Shown here piece after piece: positions 7,174 to 22,290 of a DNA stretch of 31,931 bases. Where the stretch lies: the IMG/VR virus record IMGVR_UViG_3300005613_000266, positions 1 to 31,931 of that record. The stretch is one strand, 5' to 3'. Source of the DNA: a virus (lineage: Duplodnaviria; Caudoviricetes). Each line of letters begins with the position of its first letter. Position 1 is the first letter of the stretch. The notes below the pieces were generated by a model that was given only the letters and a program-made list of their open reading frames with translations, ran no database searches and was not told where the DNA came from. A program made the translations under genes and the position numbers.

Positions 7174-7202
7174 TTGCATTACATGATGTAATATGGTATA
7201 CT
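7174..7202 (+). promoter_or_regulatory. sigma70-type promoter of the lysis/packaging operon with internal palindrome
   Basis: TTGCAT-17nt-TATACT with an extended TG; ATTACAT-g-ATGTAAT at 7178-7192. Confidence 0.7.
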
Positions 7203-7247
7203 GAGTGATATAGGCAAGATACATATTTGTTTCAGGGAGTGTAAATT

Positions 7248-7544
7248 ATGACCGTAGAAATGTTATCAGCAACATCCGCAGCGTTACTAAGTTTGGTATT
7301 TAGCTATGTACCAGGGCTGAACGCGCAATTCGAGAAGTTGGAGGGTGTGTATAAGCGACTAGTTATGTTACTGTTACTGGTTGTTGTGTCCGCTGGCGCG
7401 ATTATTTTAGCCTGCGCGGGCTATGGCGAAGCCTTCCAGGTTGGCGTATCCTGCGACCAGGTGGGATTGACCGAATTGGTGAAAGTGTTTTTAGCTGCAG
7501 TGATTGCTAATCAATCCGTTTATGCCATTTCGCCAAAGAAATAA
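7248..7544 (+). CDS. holin
   Basis: 98 aa, 2-3 hydrophobic helices, basic C-terminus, upstream of the lysin. Confidence 0.7.
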   Translation: MTVEMLSATSAALLSLVFSYVPGLNAQFEKLEGVYKRLVMLLLLVVVSAGAIILACAGYGEAFQVGVSCDQVGLTELVKVFLAAVIANQSVYAISPKK

Positions 7545-11712: not shown

Positions 11713-11793
11713 ATGACAAAGGTATTGGTAACAGGCAGCGAGGGATTAGTTGGAACGCCAACTGTTGATTTGTTAAAAATATCGGGATACTAA
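11713..11793 (+). pseudogene. 26-aa remnant of an NAD-dependent epimerase/dehydratase N-terminus
   Basis: MTKVLVTGSEGLVGTPTVDLLKISGY* contains the extended-SDR TGxxGxxG motif; TAATG-coupled to the next gene. Confidence 0.7.
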
Positions 11794-12413
11794 TGTATGA
11801 CAGCGTAGGCATTATCCCAGCAGCTGGTCGATCAGTGCGATTTGGAGGGTTATTGAAAGAGCTTCTTCCGGATCGCGACGGTGTGCCGTTGATAAAACGA
11901 ACAGTGCAGCAATTAGAACATGTGTGTACGGATATCGTGATTGTTACGAGTGAGTCAAAAATTACCGAGCATACAAAAGCGGTTGGTAACTGCGGTTGTC
12001 AGTTTCGAATACAGCGCCACGATACTGGACTATGGGGAGCGATATTGACAGCAATGGTTGTACCTGCGGAATATTACTATTTTATGATGCCTGACACGGT
12101 GGTTGAGGGAGAGTTTCCATATTACTTTAAAAACTTTGCCATGGGATTGCATCAAACAATGAAGCCGGAGCGATTTGGCGTTCTCCTCGGTGATCGGGTC
12201 GTCGATAAAGGCGCTGGAATTGATACACCTGCCAACGCATGGGGAACATTGGCATGGAGCGATACCGTAAAACGCAAATGGATGAATGAGAGCATAAACG
12301 ATCATACATTAGCAATCAATATGGCTATTCATAGTTATGGAGTGGAAATATTCCAATTGACTGAATACTATGACATGGCAAGTGTTGGAGATTATCGGGA
12401 GTATTTACGATGA
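11793..12413 (+). CDS. sugar-phosphate nucleotidyltransferase-like (RmlA/GalU fold)
   Basis: GIIPAAGRSVRFGG..KELLP, MPDT, RFGV, YYDMA. Confidence 0.8.
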   Translation: MYDSVGIIPAAGRSVRFGGLLKELLPDRDGVPLIKRTVQQLEHVCTDIVIVTSESKITEHTKAVGNCGCQFRIQRHDTGLWGAILTAMVVPAEYYYFMMPDTVVEGEFPYYFKNFAMGLHQTMKPERFGVLLGDRVVDKGAGIDTPANAWGTLAWSDTVKRKWMNESINDHTLAINMAIHSYGVEIFQLTEYYDMASVGDYREYLR

Positions 12414-13057: not shown

Positions 13058-13533
13058 AAATTGAAGTTGAAGGGTTAGAGGAATTGCGAGCGCGATTTGC
13101 ACAATTTCCCAGACAATTCAATGCAGCGTTGCGCAGTACATTGATGGATTCGTTGAATGCCGTTTGGGAAAAAGTGTTGCCGTATCCGCCACGACCGGAA
13201 AGCAGCACGTATATAAGAACTGGTACACTCGGTAGATCGCTGGGCAGTTCCGAAAGCGGTGGACAAAGCGGCGGCAGACCAGGTATCTATCAGGTGAAAT
13301 CTCAAGGCACAAAGGCAATGTTCGGTGAATTCGGGACAAATCTTGAATACGCGCCATATGTCATTGGGGATAGGGAAACGGTTGAAGGCGAAAAGGGACA
13401 GACAAAAACTCATCGTAAGAATGGGTGGTGGACATTGACTGAGATTGGAGAGAGAGCGGTGCCAAAAATACAGCAGTTATTTGAAGGCATGGCGCGCCAA
13501 TTAGCACAGTGGTTGGATGGGCAGCGGCTATGA
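13054..13533 (+). CDS. HK97 gp10 / Mu gpG-like neck protein
   Basis: IEVEGLEEL, RTGTLGRS, GTNLEYAPYV. Confidence 0.75.
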   Translation: MKIEVEGLEELRARFAQFPRQFNAALRSTLMDSLNAVWEKVLPYPPRPESSTYIRTGTLGRSLGSSESGGQSGGRPGIYQVKSQGTKAMFGEFGTNLEYAPYVIGDRETVEGEKGQTKTHRKNGWWTLTEIGERAVPKIQQLFEGMARQLAQWLDGQRL

Positions 13534-13904
13534 ACGGTAGTAACGGTAATGGTAAAAATCATAGACGATATCATATTATTGAATATCGCTGTTATTCGTG
13601 TGGGCGATTGCTGTTTCGCTCGGTAATGAGTGAAGGGACAAAGATAGAAATTCGATGTCCAGGGTGCGGTATTATGAATGTGTTTCCAGTACCATCATAT
13701 AATAAGAATGATCCCAAACAGGTAAAAAAACGAGTTGAGGTAGAAGAAATCGATCCGAATGAATACAGTGCTAATGATTTTAGGAAATTAGTTACTCGAC
13801 TAGGTAATTTGCCCGATAATTTGATTAGTGATATGATTGTGATGGAACAGAACGGCAAAAACCGTTCAAGTGTTATGAAAGCAATTGCGCGCTTGCAAAA
13901 ATAG
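13530..13904 (+). CDS. Mu Com-family zinc-finger RNA-binding regulator with C-terminal helical extension
   Basis: EYRCYSCGRLLFR..KIEIRCPGCG matches the Com pattern RCxxCxxLL..IEIRCPxC; ATGA overlap start. Confidence 0.75.
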   Translation: MNGSNGNGKNHRRYHIIEYRCYSCGRLLFRSVMSEGTKIEIRCPGCGIMNVFPVPSYNKNDPKQVKKRVEVEEIDPNEYSANDFRKLVTRLGNLPDNLISDMIVMEQNGKNRSSVMKAIARLQK

Positions 13905-13931
13905 CAAGAATGTGCTAATATTATATATAAT
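13893..13931 (+). promoter_or_regulatory. candidate promoter for the capsid operon
   Basis: TTGCAA-17nt-TAATAT with TG, or the alternative TATAAT at 13926-13931. Confidence 0.45.
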
Positions 13932-13942
13932 TGAATAAGCCT

Positions 13943-14014
13943 GAGCGCCATTGAGCGCCTGTGCGAAACCTGTTTTTAGCTTCGGCTAAACTCTCGAGCG
14001 CCATTGAGCGCCTG
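13943..14014 (+). promoter_or_regulatory. two 19-nt direct repeats GAGCGCCATTGAGCGCCTG flanking a C(UUCG)G hairpin; putative Com-binding sites
   Basis: Exact copies at 13943-13961 and 13996-14014; tttagc-ttcg-gctaaa at 13975-13990. Confidence 0.75.
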
Positions 14015-14057
14015 GAAAGATCAACACATGTGGTTGGTTTATCCAGGTGCTTTTTTT
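14006..14057 (+). terminator. intrinsic terminator/attenuator in the capsid operon leader
   Basis: agcgcctgga...tccaggtgct stem extended by agatcaac/gttggttt, followed by T7. Confidence 0.75.
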
Positions 14058-14077
14058 GTTAATCAATTCGGAGGGTT

Positions 14078-15067
14078 ATGGATAGTATCTATTTGCTAGA
14101 TCAATATGTGACGACCAAGGCAGGGGAACCATTCCGGTTGTTTCCATTTGGGAAATTAGTTAAAAATGGAAAAGCGCGGGAGATCACAAGGGAATTAGCA
14201 AGCAAGTTCAAACTGCCGCATTTCAAGCCCGCTATCAAGCTGGGATCACATGAGGACGCAACGCCTGCGGGTGGTTTTATTACCGAGTTACAGGTGCGAG
14301 ACGATGGGTTATATGCGTTGCCGGAATGGAACGAGAAAGGCACACAGGCGACCGTAGATGGCGCGTATCGTTATCAATCGCCTGAGGTAATTTGGGAGGG
14401 TGGCGGATTAGAAGATCCAAATACAGGAAATGTTATTGAAGGACCGCTGGTGATCGGGGTGGCGCTGCTGCATACGCCACATCTAGGGAACGCAGCGGCG
14501 TTATATAGCGTGAGCGAAATATTGGAAAATCAGGAGGTACGTATGGAAACTGTACAGGTTCCACAAACGTTCTGGGATAAATTTATGAGCAAGTTCTTTA
14601 TTGAAAAAGAACCTGAACCAGAACAAGAACCGCAGAAAGTGGACGATCGGGCACAGGTTGAGAGATTCGAAGCATTAAAACAAGAACGCGATGAGTTGAG
14701 TGCGCGATTGCAAGCAATCGAGGCTGAGAAAGCAAAAGCCGATCTGCTAGATCACTACCGAGCGGAAATGAAAGAAACAAAGCTGGACGGCGATGATGAG
14801 ATTGTTGCCTTACTAGCTGGATTAGAGACTGAGGTTGCGGAGAAATTCGTGCAGCATTTCAAAGCATTATCAGCGCAAATTGACGATACAAAGATTCTGG
14901 ATGAGAAAGGCGCGGACGGCGGGGGCGTTGACGACGATCCGGTGAATGCTTTTGATGTGGCTGTAAGAGCATATGCTACTGAGAACAAAGTTGATTACAT
15001 TACTGCATTAGGCTCAGTTGCTCAAGCCCAACCCGAATTGTATCAAGCATATAAAGGAGGTAATTAG
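14078..15067 (+). CDS. prohead protease-scaffold fusion (Mu gpI-like)
   Basis: H...PAGGFI..L..RDDGLYA..EWN, YRYQSPE, GVALLHTP; C-terminal coiled coil. Confidence 0.85.
   Translation: MDSIYLLDQYVTTKAGEPFRLFPFGKLVKNGKAREITRELASKFKLPHFKPAIKLGSHEDATPAGGFITELQVRDDGLYALPEWNEKGTQATVDGAYRYQSPEVIWEGGGLEDPNTGNVIEGPLVIGVALLHTPHLGNAAALYSVSEILENQEVRMETVQVPQTFWDKFMSKFFIEKEPEPEQEPQKVDDRAQVERFEALKQERDELSARLQAIEAEKAKADLLDHYRAEMKETKLDGDDEIVALLAGLETEVAEKFVQHFKALSAQIDDTKILDEKGADGGGVDDDPVNAFDVAVRAYATENKVDYITALGSVAQAQPELYQAYKGGN
14543..15067 (+). CDS. nested in-frame scaffolding protein (Mu gpZ-like)
   Basis: CAGGAGGT RBS before the in-frame ATG 14543, at the protease/coiled-coil boundary. Confidence 0.6.
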   Translation: METVQVPQTFWDKFMSKFFIEKEPEPEQEPQKVDDRAQVERFEALKQERDELSARLQAIEAEKAKADLLDHYRAEMKETKLDGDDEIVALLAGLETEVAEKFVQHFKALSAQIDDTKILDEKGADGGGVDDDPVNAFDVAVRAYATENKVDYITALGSVAQAQPELYQAYKGGN

Positions 15068-16966: not shown

Positions 16967-17854
16967 TTGACAGAGAATAAACGTTACACGGGCTCGGTAT
17001 ATGTGGGGATTGTTGGTCCAGAACGAGACTACAGCACAGCGAGGGATAGCATTCAAAAACTGTTGTTGAGGCCTGGCGACAGTGGACCGCATTTCAGCCG
17101 AGCGACAAAAGGCTATGAGGCAAGGCAAACGCACCTTAACAACTTCATAGAAAGCACACATGATTTCATCTTCTTTGGGGATCATGATCAGGTATTTCCC
17201 GCAGATACGATCGAAAAATTACGCAATCATCAATTGCCGTATGTCAGCGGGTTATATTTGCGCAGATCGTATCAGCCAATCGCGCCAATATGGTTCCGAC
17301 CGTTTACAGGTGAATTTCCGTTTGAGCCATGGGTCGGAAAAATTGAACGAGGAAGATTGCACGAAATCGGAGCTAGCGGTTGGGGATGCGTATTGATACA
17401 TCGTGATGTAGTAATGGCTGTCCGAGATCAACTCAAAGGCGAATGGGAAATATTCGAAGATTTTATGGACATTTATCCATACGATTTGAAACGAATAATG
17501 AGCGCTGTTCATGGACTACGAAAGTTGGTTGATAAAGTTCGAGACGTGAATATTGAAAAGATTGATCAGTATTTGACAGTCTTAGAAGAAGAAATCCGAC
17601 CGCTGCGGGCGGACAAAACAGAGCCAGTTGGTTCCGATATTCGATTTCCCTTCTTTGCACTACAGGCAGGCTATCAACTCTACGGTGATCCAGATGTACG
17701 CTGTGGGCATATGCTAGATTATCCATTGAGCCCAGATGATTTCGACGGGTTACCGAGCGAGACACTGGAGAAGATCGCTGCATCATTAGATGAGCGCATG
17801 AAAACAGGTAGAGCACAAATTAAAAAACAACGAAATGAGGTACTAAGTGCATGA
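16967..17854 (+). CDS. GT-A fold (GT2-like) glycosyltransferase
   Basis: DFIFFGDHDQ DxD, VSGLY, GWGCVLIHRDV, GSDIRF, DPDVRCGH; TTG start with GGAGG. Confidence 0.75.
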   Translation: MTENKRYTGSVYVGIVGPERDYSTARDSIQKLLLRPGDSGPHFSRATKGYEARQTHLNNFIESTHDFIFFGDHDQVFPADTIEKLRNHQLPYVSGLYLRRSYQPIAPIWFRPFTGEFPFEPWVGKIERGRLHEIGASGWGCVLIHRDVVMAVRDQLKGEWEIFEDFMDIYPYDLKRIMSAVHGLRKLVDKVRDVNIEKIDQYLTVLEEEIRPLRADKTEPVGSDIRFPFFALQAGYQLYGDPDVRCGHMLDYPLSPDDFDGLPSETLEKIAASLDERMKTGRAQIKKQRNEVLSA

Positions 17855-18755
17855 CATTTTATTCATAACACCCGGTCCAGTTGAACAATGGGCGTCGTCT
17901 AGGTTACGTTGCACATGGGTTGCGAAATACATTGAGAACAGCTATGTAATCGATGGGACGCAAATTCACAATACAGGTATACCGAAGTCAAAGGTATATG
18001 TTTGGGAAAAGATTGGTAATCCTGAAACGATGAGATTACAACGAGAAGCGGGCGCGTTAGTATTTTGGGATTTGTGCGATCCAGTGTGGTGGTTCAGCAC
18101 AAACGATTGTAGAGAAATAGTCAATAACGTCAGTGGCGTAGTATTGAGCAATCATGACCTGAGAGCAGATTTTGACCAATGGATATTGGATAACAATATC
18201 AGTGTGATGACTGAATGTATACCGGATCGATTGTTATTGCAGCATTACAACAAGCAGAAGATACATACATTGCAACATACAACGCCAGTGCGCTTCATCT
18301 GGTATGGATCAGCGCAGAATAGAGTCGCATTATTTGGAGCCGTGGCGCCATTGGAACGATTAGTAGCGGATGGATTTGATATTCAGCTAACGATTATGGA
18401 TGATCGACCGGATGTGAGATGGGATTTTACCGATAAATTACCGGTCTACTATACAGGTTGGAGTTTGCAACATGAGGTAGATATTATATCGTCTCACGAT
18501 ATTGCATTATTACCGAGTTATCCTGGTCCATGGGGAGCGGTAAAGTCGAACAACAAACGACTAACAGCCTGGGCATGTGGACTGCCAGCTACAGATGGCG
18601 CGGATTACAAGTATATGTTCAGATTAGTTGATGATCCAAAAGAGAGGATGTTAGAAGCGCGGCATGGATTGACGATATTGCAAAATGAGTTTGATGTAAA
18701 AAAATCAGCGATTGAATGGAGCGAGTTTATCGATGCGTGTCGGAATAATTCATAG
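17847..18755 (+). CDS. GT-B fold glycosyltransferase-like protein
   Basis: ASSRLR, WDLCD, WYGSAQN, DIALLP, KSNNKRLTAWACGLP. Confidence 0.7.
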   Translation: MHDILFITPGPVEQWASSRLRCTWVAKYIENSYVIDGTQIHNTGIPKSKVYVWEKIGNPETMRLQREAGALVFWDLCDPVWWFSTNDCREIVNNVSGVVLSNHDLRADFDQWILDNNISVMTECIPDRLLLQHYNKQKIHTLQHTTPVRFIWYGSAQNRVALFGAVAPLERLVADGFDIQLTIMDDRPDVRWDFTDKLPVYYTGWSLQHEVDIISSHDIALLPSYPGPWGAVKSNNKRLTAWACGLPATDGADYKYMFRLVDDPKERMLEARHGLTILQNEFDVKKSAIEWSEFIDACRNNS

Positions 18756-19677
18756 ACCAGGAGCGACAAGCGGCGGCGACTGGATCGCTGCCAACAACTA
18801 TGCTTATGAGCTACGTAATTTAGGCATGGATGTAAATTTGATACCTGCGGATGATTTTCAATCGTTCTTGTCATGCGACTTTCTTCATTTATATGCTGCC
18901 TGTTCTCCCGATTGGGGATTACCTGCGGCGAGGGAAGTCAAACGGCTCGGTAAGCCGTTGATCGTATCGCCGTTTTGGTGGCCACGCGATGAACGTCAAG
19001 CCTATTACGGATATGCGGGCAAAGATTTAGTGAGAGGTTATGCCGAGGCAGTCGCAAAAACGCTGAGCCTAGCGGATGTATTATTTACGGTAACAATGAG
19101 CGAAGCGGTTGAATGTTGGAAATTGGTACCACGCGCAAATGTCAAGGTGATTGGCATTGGATGCGCAAATCCGCCGATTATGGAAGATGTTGAGCGACAT
19201 GATGTGGTTGTTTCGATTGGCAGAATAGAACCGCATAAAAATCAATTGATGACAGTGCGAGCAGCGAAACGACTAGGATTTCCAGTAATATTAGCGGGCG
19301 AGATTGCAAATCCGGAATATTGGGAGGTGATCCAACGAGAAGGCTGGGATGTAAAGCATTTTATCCCGAATGAGAAACAAAAATGGCTGTTGCTGGCAGG
19401 ATCACGGGTACACGCATTACCGAGCTTCTTTGAAAATCCTGGATTGGTTCACTCGGAAGCGGCGCTAACATTTACGCCATCAGTCATGGGGGGGCATGGA
19501 TGTGAGCCGGAGTTCTTCGGGGAGTATGGCATTTACTGTGACCCAACGGACTTGGATGATATTACCGAGGCAATAGCCGAGGCGTGGGATCGTGAGCCTG
19601 CGTGGTGGGCAGAGATACCAGAATGGCGCGATGTAGCCTGGAGCGGTTATTCATGGATGGTTTACCATGGGCAATAG
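18733..19677 (+). CDS. GT4-family glycosyltransferase
   Basis: SGGD, SIGRIEPHKNQ, LPSFFENPGLVHSEAA (E-x7-E). Confidence 0.85.
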   Translation: MRVGIIHRPGATSGGDWIAANNYAYELRNLGMDVNLIPADDFQSFLSCDFLHLYAACSPDWGLPAAREVKRLGKPLIVSPFWWPRDERQAYYGYAGKDLVRGYAEAVAKTLSLADVLFTVTMSEAVECWKLVPRANVKVIGIGCANPPIMEDVERHDVVVSIGRIEPHKNQLMTVRAAKRLGFPVILAGEIANPEYWEVIQREGWDVKHFIPNEKQKWLLLAGSRVHALPSFFENPGLVHSEAALTFTPSVMGGHGCEPEFFGEYGIYCDPTDLDDITEAIAEAWDREPAWWAEIPEWRDVAWSGYSWMVYHGQ

Positions 19678-20389
19678 AATTGCAGTATTGATTGTAAACT
19701 ACAACATGCCTGAGCGGGCAGATGCGCTGGCTGAACATATCAAGAAACACACACAGATACCGTATGACATGTATTTGATCGATAACGGTTCCGATATTAT
19801 GAAGCCGGCGAAATATACAACGGTTAGACTGCCCGAAAATGTACAGACGACCAATGGATGGTTAGCAGGATTAGAGTCCGCAGCCAAGAAACAAATTGAT
19901 TATTACGCCTATTGGTTCCTTATTACAAGTGCAAATTTTGTCGATGAGCGAGATCCATTGCTGCCATTAGTTGAGTTGATGCAATCGGATGATGACATTG
20001 TAGGTGTGCATCCAGCATTGACAAAATCATCTACTACGCATTGGAAACATCTCATTACGCAGGGTGGAACGGAACCGAGACAGGTATTCATGATCGATAA
20101 TATCGCCAGTCTATACCGAGCAGATTGGTTTGACAGCATCGGGAGATTTGATAAACGGCTGATATATGGCTGGGGCATTGATTTGGAAACTGGGTATATA
20201 GCGAGAGAGATGAGAAAAAAGCTGTATGTTTGTGAACAATCGCAGATCCACAAGACCACCGATATTGGCTATTCAATGGGGCGTATGGGTATGGACGCGG
20301 TTGAACGCCGCAGATTGGCAACCTGGAACATGGAGCAAATATTCGTGAATAAATATGGCGAACAGTGGAGGGATATCATCTTCCCATGA
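19667..20389 (+). CDS. GT2-like glycosyltransferase
   Basis: VLIVNYN, IDNGSD, IGRFD..YGWGID; no canonical DxD visible. Confidence 0.75.
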   Translation: MGNRIAVLIVNYNMPERADALAEHIKKHTQIPYDMYLIDNGSDIMKPAKYTTVRLPENVQTTNGWLAGLESAAKKQIDYYAYWFLITSANFVDERDPLLPLVELMQSDDDIVGVHPALTKSSTTHWKHLITQGGTEPRQVFMIDNIASLYRADWFDSIGRFDKRLIYGWGIDLETGYIAREMRKKLYVCEQSQIHKTTDIGYSMGRMGMDAVERRRLATWNMEQIFVNKYGEQWRDIIFP

Positions 20390-21075
20390 GCGAGCTAACG
20401 ATTTTAACAATTACGCGTGGCGAGAGCCATTCGCTACCATTCTTGCAAAATCTAAGCGACTTTGCCAAAACAATCGGCGCGGAATATCTGATTGGACTAG
20501 ATATGTTTACTAATGCAGAAATCGATTTGATGAAGATTGGAACGTGTCGGATGGTTCCGTGTACCTCCAGCGGCGCAATTGAGCATGTATTAGCAGATGT
20601 GAGTCAAAAAGCGCATGGCGATTGGATATTACGGATTGATGATGATGAGAGCATGAGCATGGCGATGGAGTACTGGGTCAAGTGCGGTAGTTGGCTGACC
20701 GACGAATATACACATTATTCATTCCCAACGGCATGGCTATGGAACGATTTGGATCATTATCTAATCAATGAGCGCATGTTCCCAGATGTACATACCAGAT
20801 TAGTCAAACGTGATTTAATGCGCGATTGGCCTCGGCAGTTACACGCATCATTTTCACACGGTGTTGGGAAAATTGAACCGGTATTGTTGCTTCATCATAA
20901 ATTCTTAGTGAAGAATTATTCAGAACGTCAAACGGTGGCGGCTCGGTATGATTGTGTGCGTGATGGTGGCGGCTCGAATAATGTTTACAAACGTTATAGT
21001 CTACCAGAAGATGTATTCAGCGAAATGCGATTAGCTGAGGTTGGGACTGGATTATTACAGGGATGGCAATCATGA
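20386..21075 (+). CDS. GT2-like glycosyltransferase
   Basis: GDWILRIDDDE, PDVHTRL, LLHH; ATGA coupling. Confidence 0.7.
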   Translation: MSELTILTITRGESHSLPFLQNLSDFAKTIGAEYLIGLDMFTNAEIDLMKIGTCRMVPCTSSGAIEHVLADVSQKAHGDWILRIDDDESMSMAMEYWVKCGSWLTDEYTHYSFPTAWLWNDLDHYLINERMFPDVHTRLVKRDLMRDWPRQLHASFSHGVGKIEPVLLLHHKFLVKNYSERQTVAARYDCVRDGGGSNNVYKRYSLPEDVFSEMRLAEVGTGLLQGWQS

Positions 21076-21674
21076 CGGAATCATATGTAGATAAATTGGC
21101 AATGATCAATAACAAAATCCATGGCAGTATATGGACGGACGCGGATGAGTGCGAATTGATTACAGAGATAATCCAGGAGGCTGGTGATGGGCTGCACCTG
21201 GAAATCGGGACAGCACATGGTGGGACGGCGATCATCGCAGGATTGGCTAAGAAAGAGTACAATATTGGCGGTGGCGTTGTAACTATTGATCCAATGGTAG
21301 GCGGTTGGTGGGATCATGGCGATGGCAACGGGGATACACCAACGCGACAAACGGTATTGGATAATATTAGTAAGTTTGATATAGACTGCACCAGTATTGT
21401 GGGATATTCGCAGGATATTATTCCAGCAAATGATTTCAAACCTGTGACTACATTTATTGACGGCGACCATTCGCATTGGGGGTGCTTGTGGGATTGGAAC
21501 TTGGTCAAGGATATTACCGAGAAATTCGTGATATTCCACGACTACAATTTCGATAATCCCAAATTAGCAGGCGTGATCAAAGTTGTTGATGAGATAGCCA
21601 GTATAGATAGCGAGTGGCAGAGATACAAAGAAGTAAATAGAGTAGTTGTATTCAAGAGGCTGGAATATGATTGA
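21072..21674 (+). CDS. class I SAM methyltransferase (Methyltransf_24-like)
   Basis: LEIGTAHGGT, TIDP, FIDGDHS, IFHDY. Confidence 0.85.
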   Translation: MTESYVDKLAMINNKIHGSIWTDADECELITEIIQEAGDGLHLEIGTAHGGTAIIAGLAKKEYNIGGGVVTIDPMVGGWWDHGDGNGDTPTRQTVLDNISKFDIDCTSIVGYSQDIIPANDFKPVTTFIDGDHSHWGCLWDWNLVKDITEKFVIFHDYNFDNPKLAGVIKVVDEIASIDSEWQRYKEVNRVVVFKRLEYD

Positions 21675-22290
21675 GAACAACTTGCTCAGTATTATTGTGG
21701 CAGCGCATAATCAGTGGGATGAATTTACCGAGCCAATGATGCGGTCACTACGGAAATATAATCCAGAAACGCCTGTGGTAATTGTAGACAATGGAAGTTC
21801 TCCAGCATATCCAACAGAGTTGGATAGTCACACGTTAGTAATTAGATCAAATAATAACAGTCTGGCACAGGCGAATAATCTCGGTATTGTACACAGTCCG
21901 ATTAGCAAATGGTATTTGACGCTGAATAATGATGTGATTGTGAGCGGAAATATCGAAGAACACGCAGCGCAGTTCGCCGAAGATACGATTTACAGCAATC
22001 AGATCCACACCTGGACGCACAGTACGTATGCGGTTGGGTGGTGTCTAGCATTACCAAGACAGGCATTATTGGATGTTGGATTGTATGATGAGAATTTCAT
22101 CAAACTATATTATGACGAAGTCGATTACTGCTACCGAGCAGAGCATTATGGGTACAAGATCAAACAATGCTATTTGCCAATTATGCACCTGGGCAAAGGT
22201 GGGGGTAGCAGGCACTTTAACGATAGCGACAACATCGCGGCGATCAACAAACGCTGGTTTCTGACTAAACACAATCTGGAGAAATCATAA
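21667..22290 (+). CDS. GT2-family glycosyltransferase
   Basis: SIIVAAHN, VDNGS, LNND, VGLYDE, EVDYCYRA, HLG. Confidence 0.85.
   Translation: MIENNLLSIIVAAHNQWDEFTEPMMRSLRKYNPETPVVIVDNGSSPAYPTELDSHTLVIRSNNNSLAQANNLGIVHSPISKWYLTLNNDVIVSGNIEEHAAQFAEDTIYSNQIHTWTHSTYAVGWCLALPRQALLDVGLYDENFIKLYYDEVDYCYRAEHYGYKIKQCYLPIMHLGKGGGSRHFNDSDNIAAINKRWFLTKHNLEKS

Follow-up and report, generated by a model that had tools for sequence, protein, structure and literature searches.

The stretch of DNA that was analysed as a whole, here called the window, comprises 31.9 kb of phage DNA from a record that is approximately 63% complete. Genes for a Mu-type portal, gpF, gpI protease, cement and capsid proteins are encoded in the window as judged by Pfam. 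The features of the region around the protease are as follows.

13530..13904, plus strand: Com-like zinc-ribbon gene, 124 aa from its ATG
13893..13921, plus strand: predicted sigma-70-type promoter, TTGCAA-17-TG-n-TAATAT, overlapping the stop of the com-like gene
13926-13931, plus strand: TATAAT, a second possible -10 element by sequence
13943..13959, plus strand: Com-type site 1, GA-GCGC-C-AUU-GA-GCGC-C, with a 4-bp stem and a hexaloop
13975..13990, plus strand: C(UUCG)G spacer hairpin, predicted by folding and not conserved
13996..14012, plus strand: Com-type site 2, whose 3' stem strand (14008-14011) doubles as the base of the terminator stem
14006..14057, plus strand: predicted intrinsic terminator, with a hairpin at 14006-14052 (-27 kcal/mol) and T7 at 14051-14057
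14070..14074, plus strand: Shine-Dalgarno-like GGAGG, outside the terminator hairpin
14078..15067, plus strand: Mu gpI-type head maturation protease/scaffold (PF10123, E 2.2e-12; PF09956; PF03864)
15070 and 15469, downstream of the protease: starts of the cement protein gene and the major capsid protein gene

The ATG of the com-like gene overlaps the stop codon of an upstream neck gene, and the protease is the first gene after the leader. A first-pass annotation of this DNA had placed the terminator about 20 nt ahead of the protease and had stated that the region has no mom-like gene. Both points hold, with the T7 ending at 14057, the ATG 20 nt past the U-run at 14078, and the next gene being of the Mu gpI type by Pfam. 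The GGAGG is also present, but at 14070-14074 instead of about 14069. Further upstream, a promoter-like sequence (TTGCAT-17-TG-n-TATACT, 7176-7204, plus strand), which has no Com site, precedes a unit that begins at 7248 and includes M23 peptidase, terminase and portal genes before it reaches com. Pfam also identified a cluster of glycosyltransferase and methyltransferase genes at 16967-22290, directly after the capsid genes, and an NTP-transferase at 11793-12413 between portal and gpF; these are possibly involved in virion glycosylation.

The product of ORF 13530-13904 is probably a divergent member of the Com family by sequence comparison. It consists of a four-cysteine ribbon (aa 17-53) and a predicted three-helix C-terminal extension (aa 81-123). 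The Com-like CxxC..CPxC arrangement reported earlier was confirmed as C21-x2-C24 and C43-P-G-C46, and these residues have the CxxC...CxxC spacing of a short Com-type ribbon. The protein scored 21.5 bits (E 1.6e-4) against PF10122 (Com), with the Pfam gathering cut-off narrowly above this at 22.9, and its two closest full-length relatives passed the cut-off with 23.1 and 25.6 bits. It also matched phrog_6417 ('translational regulator') at E 4.1e-8, and HHalign comparison with canonical Com gave 96.8%. The full search returned 73 relatives; in an alignment of 63 sequences (the query and 62 of these relatives), 31 matched PF10122 at E <=1e-3. AlphaFold2 modelled the protein with a mean pLDDT of 78.7, where the four-strand ribbon reached 89-98 and the three-helix part was less certain. 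Structure searches with this model returned nothing at E <=0.001 from the PDB or BFVD, a PDB sequence search returned generic zinc ribbons and nothing more specific, NCBIfam returned just the FmdB ribbon below cut-off, and a word-indexed protein search returned the self-match alone. Such an extension is rare, since a tail longer than 35 aa occurs in 4 of 39 Com-like matches; the three-helix segment (13770-13904 in the window) is common to P0002, P0003, and P0019. We infer that the Com-like protein would bind zinc and the bipartite RNA hairpin, a site for which is present beside its gene.

The leader carries an exact repeat of 19 nt, GAGCGCCATTGAGCGCCTG, at 13943-13961 and again 53 nt further on at 13996-14014; as first described, the C(UUCG)G hairpin lies between the two copies at 13975-13990. 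The consensus that the first-pass annotation gave for Com, GAG-N2-CC-N2-3-GAG-N2-CC, was correct in sequence, but according to the available text of the source it was selected in vitro with Haemophilus sputorum Com and not with Mu Com (PMC6483171). Both repeats fit this consensus exactly, as had been claimed. They are its sole matches in the window on either strand, with a chance expectation of 0.03 from 100 order-2 Markov simulations. The window sites also share their hairpin geometry with the native Mu mom target printed in the part of that paper available to us, which has a GA, a 4-bp stem, a C-N3-GA loop and a C (PMC6483171). In other loci GAGCGCC-N3-GAGCGCC lies between a canonical Com gene (40-53 bits) and either Mom (L035) or a Dam-type gene (L053, L060), and this ties the window's site to true Com proteins.

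Folding of the leader gave a z value of -2.64. The earlier proposal that the second repeat forms the 5' arm of a terminator holds for the hairpin and T7 at 14006-14057, but just the second half of the repeat, from 14006 onward, is part of that arm. Because the terminator stem is built at its base from the 3' strand of site 2, the site-2 fold and the terminator fold are mutually exclusive. The predicted cost of forcing site 2 is approximately 5.5 kcal/mol, and that of forcing both sites is 8.5. In modelled partial transcripts, the predicted pairing is between one repeat and the other and not within each as a site, which is a point against a simple picture. The long interrupted stem at 14006-14052 was absent from the list of a simple terminator scan, and the promoter at 13893-13921, which the first-pass annotation had not mentioned, was absent from that of a consensus promoter scan.

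Because the Com alignment was too variable for scanning contigs, we collected relatives by their protease. This yielded 148 loci, fetched without use of the motif, which together with the window formed 90 clusters at 90% identity; 81 of these had at least 250 nt upstream and 60 had at least 1200 nt. A Com-like gene was called at 30 bits or more with an HMM built from 11 ribbons, 6 of them from the protease-fetched set. By this call, 38 of the 81 clusters have a Com-like gene; L301 and L392, which have an interrupted ribbon, scored Com-negative and both are without a site. In the set of 60, the SELEX pattern, which was fixed a priori, was present in 14 of 33 Com-positive versus 0 of 27 Com-negative leaders (Fisher p 9e-5, phylogeny ignored). 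A wider sequence-only pattern, GA-RNNY-C-N1-6-GA-RNNY-C, occurred in 21 of 33 Com-positive and 1 of 27 Com-negative leaders; the opposite strand carried it in 2 of 38 Com-positive loci. This pattern was composed after viewing the leaders, so its p-values are optimistic. The sequence-only site was missing from 13 of the 38 Com-positive leaders, several of which have 3- or 5-bp variants. A structural descriptor with stems of 3-5 bp was found in 30 of 38 Com-positive and 11 of 43 Com-negative loci, five of these 11 being truncated within 700 nt upstream.

On a quick tree of 57 proteases, from which 3 short matches were dropped, Com presence switches 11 times, 4 of them on well-supported branches. 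In independent pairs the site follows Com in 3.6 of 4 and does the opposite in 0 (p 0.125); there are only four well-supported pairs, too few for this test to reach significance. The single GTDB locus among the protease homologues is Com-negative at 41% identity, and no close cultured relative was found. One locus (L399) has a full two-site leader and terminator 228 nt before the protease match and no Com-like gene in its 2.2 kb of upstream DNA.

Scanning by the motif first was a poor test with little enrichment. At least 119 loci (about 350 estimated) were found, versus at least 81 for the reversed pattern, and among the matches listed many lie in coding frames. For loci with at least 600 nt upstream, a Com-like match was present in 6 of 74 versus 0 of 74 for the reversed pattern; two of these six are contigs of a seed and one is weak. 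A terminator starting in the second repeat was present in 2 of 119 motif-first loci versus 1 of 81 reversed-pattern loci. Searching for the site and terminator together gave 20 loci, and the fetched DNA of 5 of them contained a Com-like gene; this set was selected for site/terminator overlap and so is not used as evidence for the overlap. Within three loci (L027, L255, L258), a small ORF that is Com-like by eye and without cysteines lies just before a leader with site and terminator. Elsewhere (L002/L244, L253, L262, L068, L071) site and terminator are directly before long genes of unrelated phages, which are terminase-like by eye. No Com-like gene was detected in the fetched DNA of L244, L253, and L262, and in loci of this type Com may act from elsewhere.

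We then considered what is conserved in the leaders themselves. In the 46 sites that were selected on sequence alone, pairing was seen for 170 of 184 stem cells compared to 147.6 after shuffling the halves, and 0 of 10000 shuffles was as high; with the 24 distinct stem combinations the values were 82 of 96 cells versus 67.0, in a test that ignores relatedness. Covarying stem pairs include GCGT/ACGC, ACGC/GCGT, GTGC/GCAC, and ACTC/GAGT. With no T filter applied, 23 of 25 leaders have a stem of <=-9 kcal/mol that begins in the last site. At least 5 T within the 8 nt after this stem were present in 20 of the 25, whereas 4 of 265 hairpins from coding sequence had such a run. These results bear on whether the repeats are DNA operators immediately downstream of the promoter, at which the protein activates or represses transcription, perhaps by way of its C-terminal helices, with the terminator being separate. 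The direct repeats do adjoin a promoter, and the protein carries an extra predicted three-helix domain. However, the halves of the site vary so as to keep pairing and not identity, the position of the site is tied to that of the terminator base, most relatives lack the extension, and Com is described as an RNA binder in the available text of PMC6483171. We regard DNA operators as quite improbable.

A second possibility is translational activation in the manner of Mu com-mom, where the long hairpin or pairing between leader and Shine-Dalgarno sequence would block ribosome entry at the protease and Com would open it. This is the main rival, and it may act together with termination. Translational activation is the only proven activity of Com in the available portions of two papers (PMC6483171, PMC3299994). 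The distance from the end of the stem to the next ATG is 6-27 nt in 35 of 36 Com-positive leaders and <=14 nt in 14 of 36, so that the stem could also block ribosomes. In the window, by contrast, 26 nt separate the end of the stem from the ATG, and the Shine-Dalgarno sequence lies outside the stem. The first-pass annotation had considered this ribosome-binding site free; it is indeed outside the hairpin, but weak alternative pairings of 14068-14079 with the leader are predicted. Pairing probabilities have 14072-14074 mostly paired, spread over several partners, which favors the translational reading, and no single pairing exceeds 0.47, which does not. Across relatives, a Shine-Dalgarno-like word within the 3' arm was found in 3 of 25 leaders compared to the 20 of 25 with a U-run after the stem, and opening one ribosome-binding site would reach one gene and not an operon. 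For these reasons we consider translational activation unlikely as the explanation for this leader.

A promoter-like site scoring 10 or more was found upstream of the terminator in 28 of 36 Com-positive leaders, compared to 0 in coding controls and 0.8 in shuffled ones; the window's own promoter is weak by consensus, at 9 of 13 and under the cut-off of 10. The unit from promoter to terminator is 45-161 nt long in relatives, and both its length and its middle part vary. Two or three sites occur in 16 of 25 leaders with start-to-start spacings of 8-53 nt, and the UUCG hairpin is not conserved, with CTTCGG in 3 of 36 Com-positive leaders.

Bacillus phage PBC4 (NC_070843.1; L402) offers a cultured case. 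It has an unannotated Com-like gene (22.5 bits) and, within the 78,138 of 80,647 bases that were scanned, a single site that is joined to a hairpin and U-run, at 64479 on the minus strand, with TTGCAA-17-TATAAT upstream. This site is approximately 3 kb from the Com-like gene and antisense to gp087-gp080, with the nearest same-strand gene about 4 kb further on. By sequence, PBC4 supports a link between protein, site and terminator, and since its site is not before virion genes, targets vary.

The stretch from promoter to terminator could also be a stand-alone small RNA, such as a Com sponge or structural RNA, with the head genes transcribed otherwise. Its own promoter-like site and terminator, the short unit in relatives, and the PBC4 copy without a gene directly behind it are in keeping with this. 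A sponge, however, needs no strand shared with the terminator stem, yet this overlap recurs, and neither length nor middle part is conserved. In the window, the 20 nt between the U-run and the protease ATG leave no room for another promoter. An Rfam scan of the window found nothing at gathering scores, the 5 weak matches (E 0.88-2.1) being far below cut-off. We think a stand-alone RNA improbable.

The co-occurrence of gene and site, the covariation, the overlap with the terminator base, and the fit of an upstream promoter-like site in these relatives support the antitermination reading that had been put forward for this leader. We estimate a probability of roughly 0.65 that the Com-like protein gates the head and downstream genes by ANTAR-like RNA antitermination. 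Because the putative Com target overlaps a predicted terminator before the capsid genes, the protein likely enables particle production by read-through. In this model the internal host-type promoter would start a short leader that stops by default at the U-run. The Com-like protein, encoded last in the upstream lysis-terminase-portal unit, would bind the emerging site-2 hairpin approximately 40 nt before the 3' arm of the terminator is complete. Binding would remove the bottom of the terminator stem, so that polymerase continues into the protease and capsid genes. Site 1 may serve as a helper, through loading or two-site binding. Opening the terminator would need 5.5-8.5 kcal/mol or kinetic capture. 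Without such a switch the host-type promoter would be on constantly, and since com is the last gene of the lysis-terminase-portal unit, its product would permit synthesis of the abundant head proteins once the packaging genes have been expressed.

Com binding might instead promote termination as negative feedback. Against this, in the available text of PMC6483171 Com favors the hairpin form of its site and binds the duplex form weakly, and the site-2 hairpin and terminator base exclude each other. We consider this the least probable reading. Overall, a DNA operator, a small RNA and pro-termination fit less well than antitermination.

So far, the only role known for Com is translational activation of DNA-modification genes. 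If antitermination is correct, an RNA-binding domain of roughly 40 residues together with a site of 17 nt could make up a late-gene switch in phages, which would be distinct from lambda N and Q, Mu C, and phage sigma factors. It would also suggest a function for many small unannotated phage genes, and synthetic circuits would gain a very compact terminator under protein control.

The position between the neck gene and the protease is not always occupied by Com. An unrelated small helical protein of 45-70 aa occupies this slot in 16 clusters (13 clear and 3 at 14-21 bits), never together with Com; examples include L152:786-977, L153:2680-2886, L356, L358, L346, L344, L315, and L274. None of these 16 has a Com-type site. 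Instead, a GGCAGT/GGCTCT...CGCC motif, composed after inspection, was present in 8 of 16 leaders versus 1 of 38 Com-positive loci; it often occurs twice and by eye ends in the terminator base. A GTAGCAC...GCCGCGC-type motif was seen by eye in L277, L283, and L284. A Pfam scan of 14 members of the helical family gave no credible match and an ESM Atlas search gave no usable one. A third family of small proteins is directly before the protease in six further clusters (L297, L307, L359, L369, L370, L383). These appear helix-turn-helix-like by eye, their leaders are without Com sites, and the 2 members scanned had no Pfam match.

Together, these leader sequences suggest that each small protein is paired with its own RNA motif, and make the helical protein a candidate for a second antiterminator family. 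Our tentative extension, which we put at somewhat less than an even chance, is that the head operon of this phage family is gated by interchangeable cassettes, each a tiny RNA-binding protein with its own motif at the same terminator position. Under this model one cassette, in 38 of 81 clusters, would pair Com-like ribbons with GA-stem-C-Nn-GA-stem-C, and the other, in 16 different clusters, would pair the helical protein with a GGCAGT/GGCTCT...AACGCC-type motif. Were it true, Com would be a phage late-gene antiterminator alongside a second, undescribed family of RNA-binding antiterminators, and the exchange of Com for the helical protein would provide a natural pair for specificity-swap experiments.

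As a comparison, one of the nearest known systems is Mu com-mom, with which the window shares the 4-Cys zinc ribbon, the consensus RNA site, the same stem-hexaloop geometry, and binding that would destabilise an overlapping inhibitory hairpin, as far as the available text of these papers describes them (PMC6483171, PMC3299994). However, the target here is a head operon in place of mom or a methyltransferase, the hairpin has a U-run with the Shine-Dalgarno sequence (14070-14074) and ATG (14078) outside it, a promoter-like site and two Com sites lie between com and its target, and the protein has a 70-aa extension. Since target and hairpin differ, we rejected identity with the com-mom switch. 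In the available text of two papers, com-like genes also precede Pseudomonas llpA, tailocin cargo, and levansucrase genes (PMC6240691, PMC3899960), so that, as in the window, a Com homologue is beside a gene other than mom. Unlike the window, no RNA site or terminator is described for these in the same text; one of the papers terms the wider role of Com homologues unexplored (PMC6240691), and the other reports that a com stop mutation left lscB output unchanged (PMC3899960). A search of open PMC and bioRxiv text, with subscription journals and supplements such as RNA-motif tables outside its scope, found no account of Com as an antiterminator.

The ANTAR proteins EutV, AmiR, and NasR (PF03861) are antiterminators, and the window has the layout of the proven ANTAR dual-hairpin system. 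In the available text on this system, two small hexaloop hairpins are present, the second at the 5' base of a terminator, and protein binding excludes the terminator (PMC3369931); in the window, folding predicts a corresponding pair of small hairpins with the second overlapping the 5' base of the predicted terminator. By contrast, a Pfam scan of 46 window proteins found no ANTAR domain. The window loop is CAUUGA (C-N3-GA) where ANTAR loops have A at position 1 and G at 4, and the linker is 39 nt compared to 5-12 nt in eut genes, as given in the same text (PMC3369931). The regulated genes are phage late genes here and nitrogen metabolism there. With no ANTAR domain and a different loop, identity with an ANTAR system was rejected.

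The same 46 proteins gave no Pfam match to the Q or Mor/C families in this approximately 63% complete record. At lambda pR'/tR', late gene expression is gated by a short leader that starts at a host-type promoter and terminates; Q loads on polymerase through a DNA site. Mu C activates initiation, and one Mu C-dependent late promoter precedes gene I. The window resembles lambda in having a predicted terminated leader, from a predicted host-type promoter, ahead of late genes, and resembles Mu in having its putative control point just ahead of a gpI-type protease. Mu has four late promoters, all needing MuC, according to the available text of PMC12867686. By contrast with both lambda Q and Mu C, the cue in the window would be a local RNA fold.
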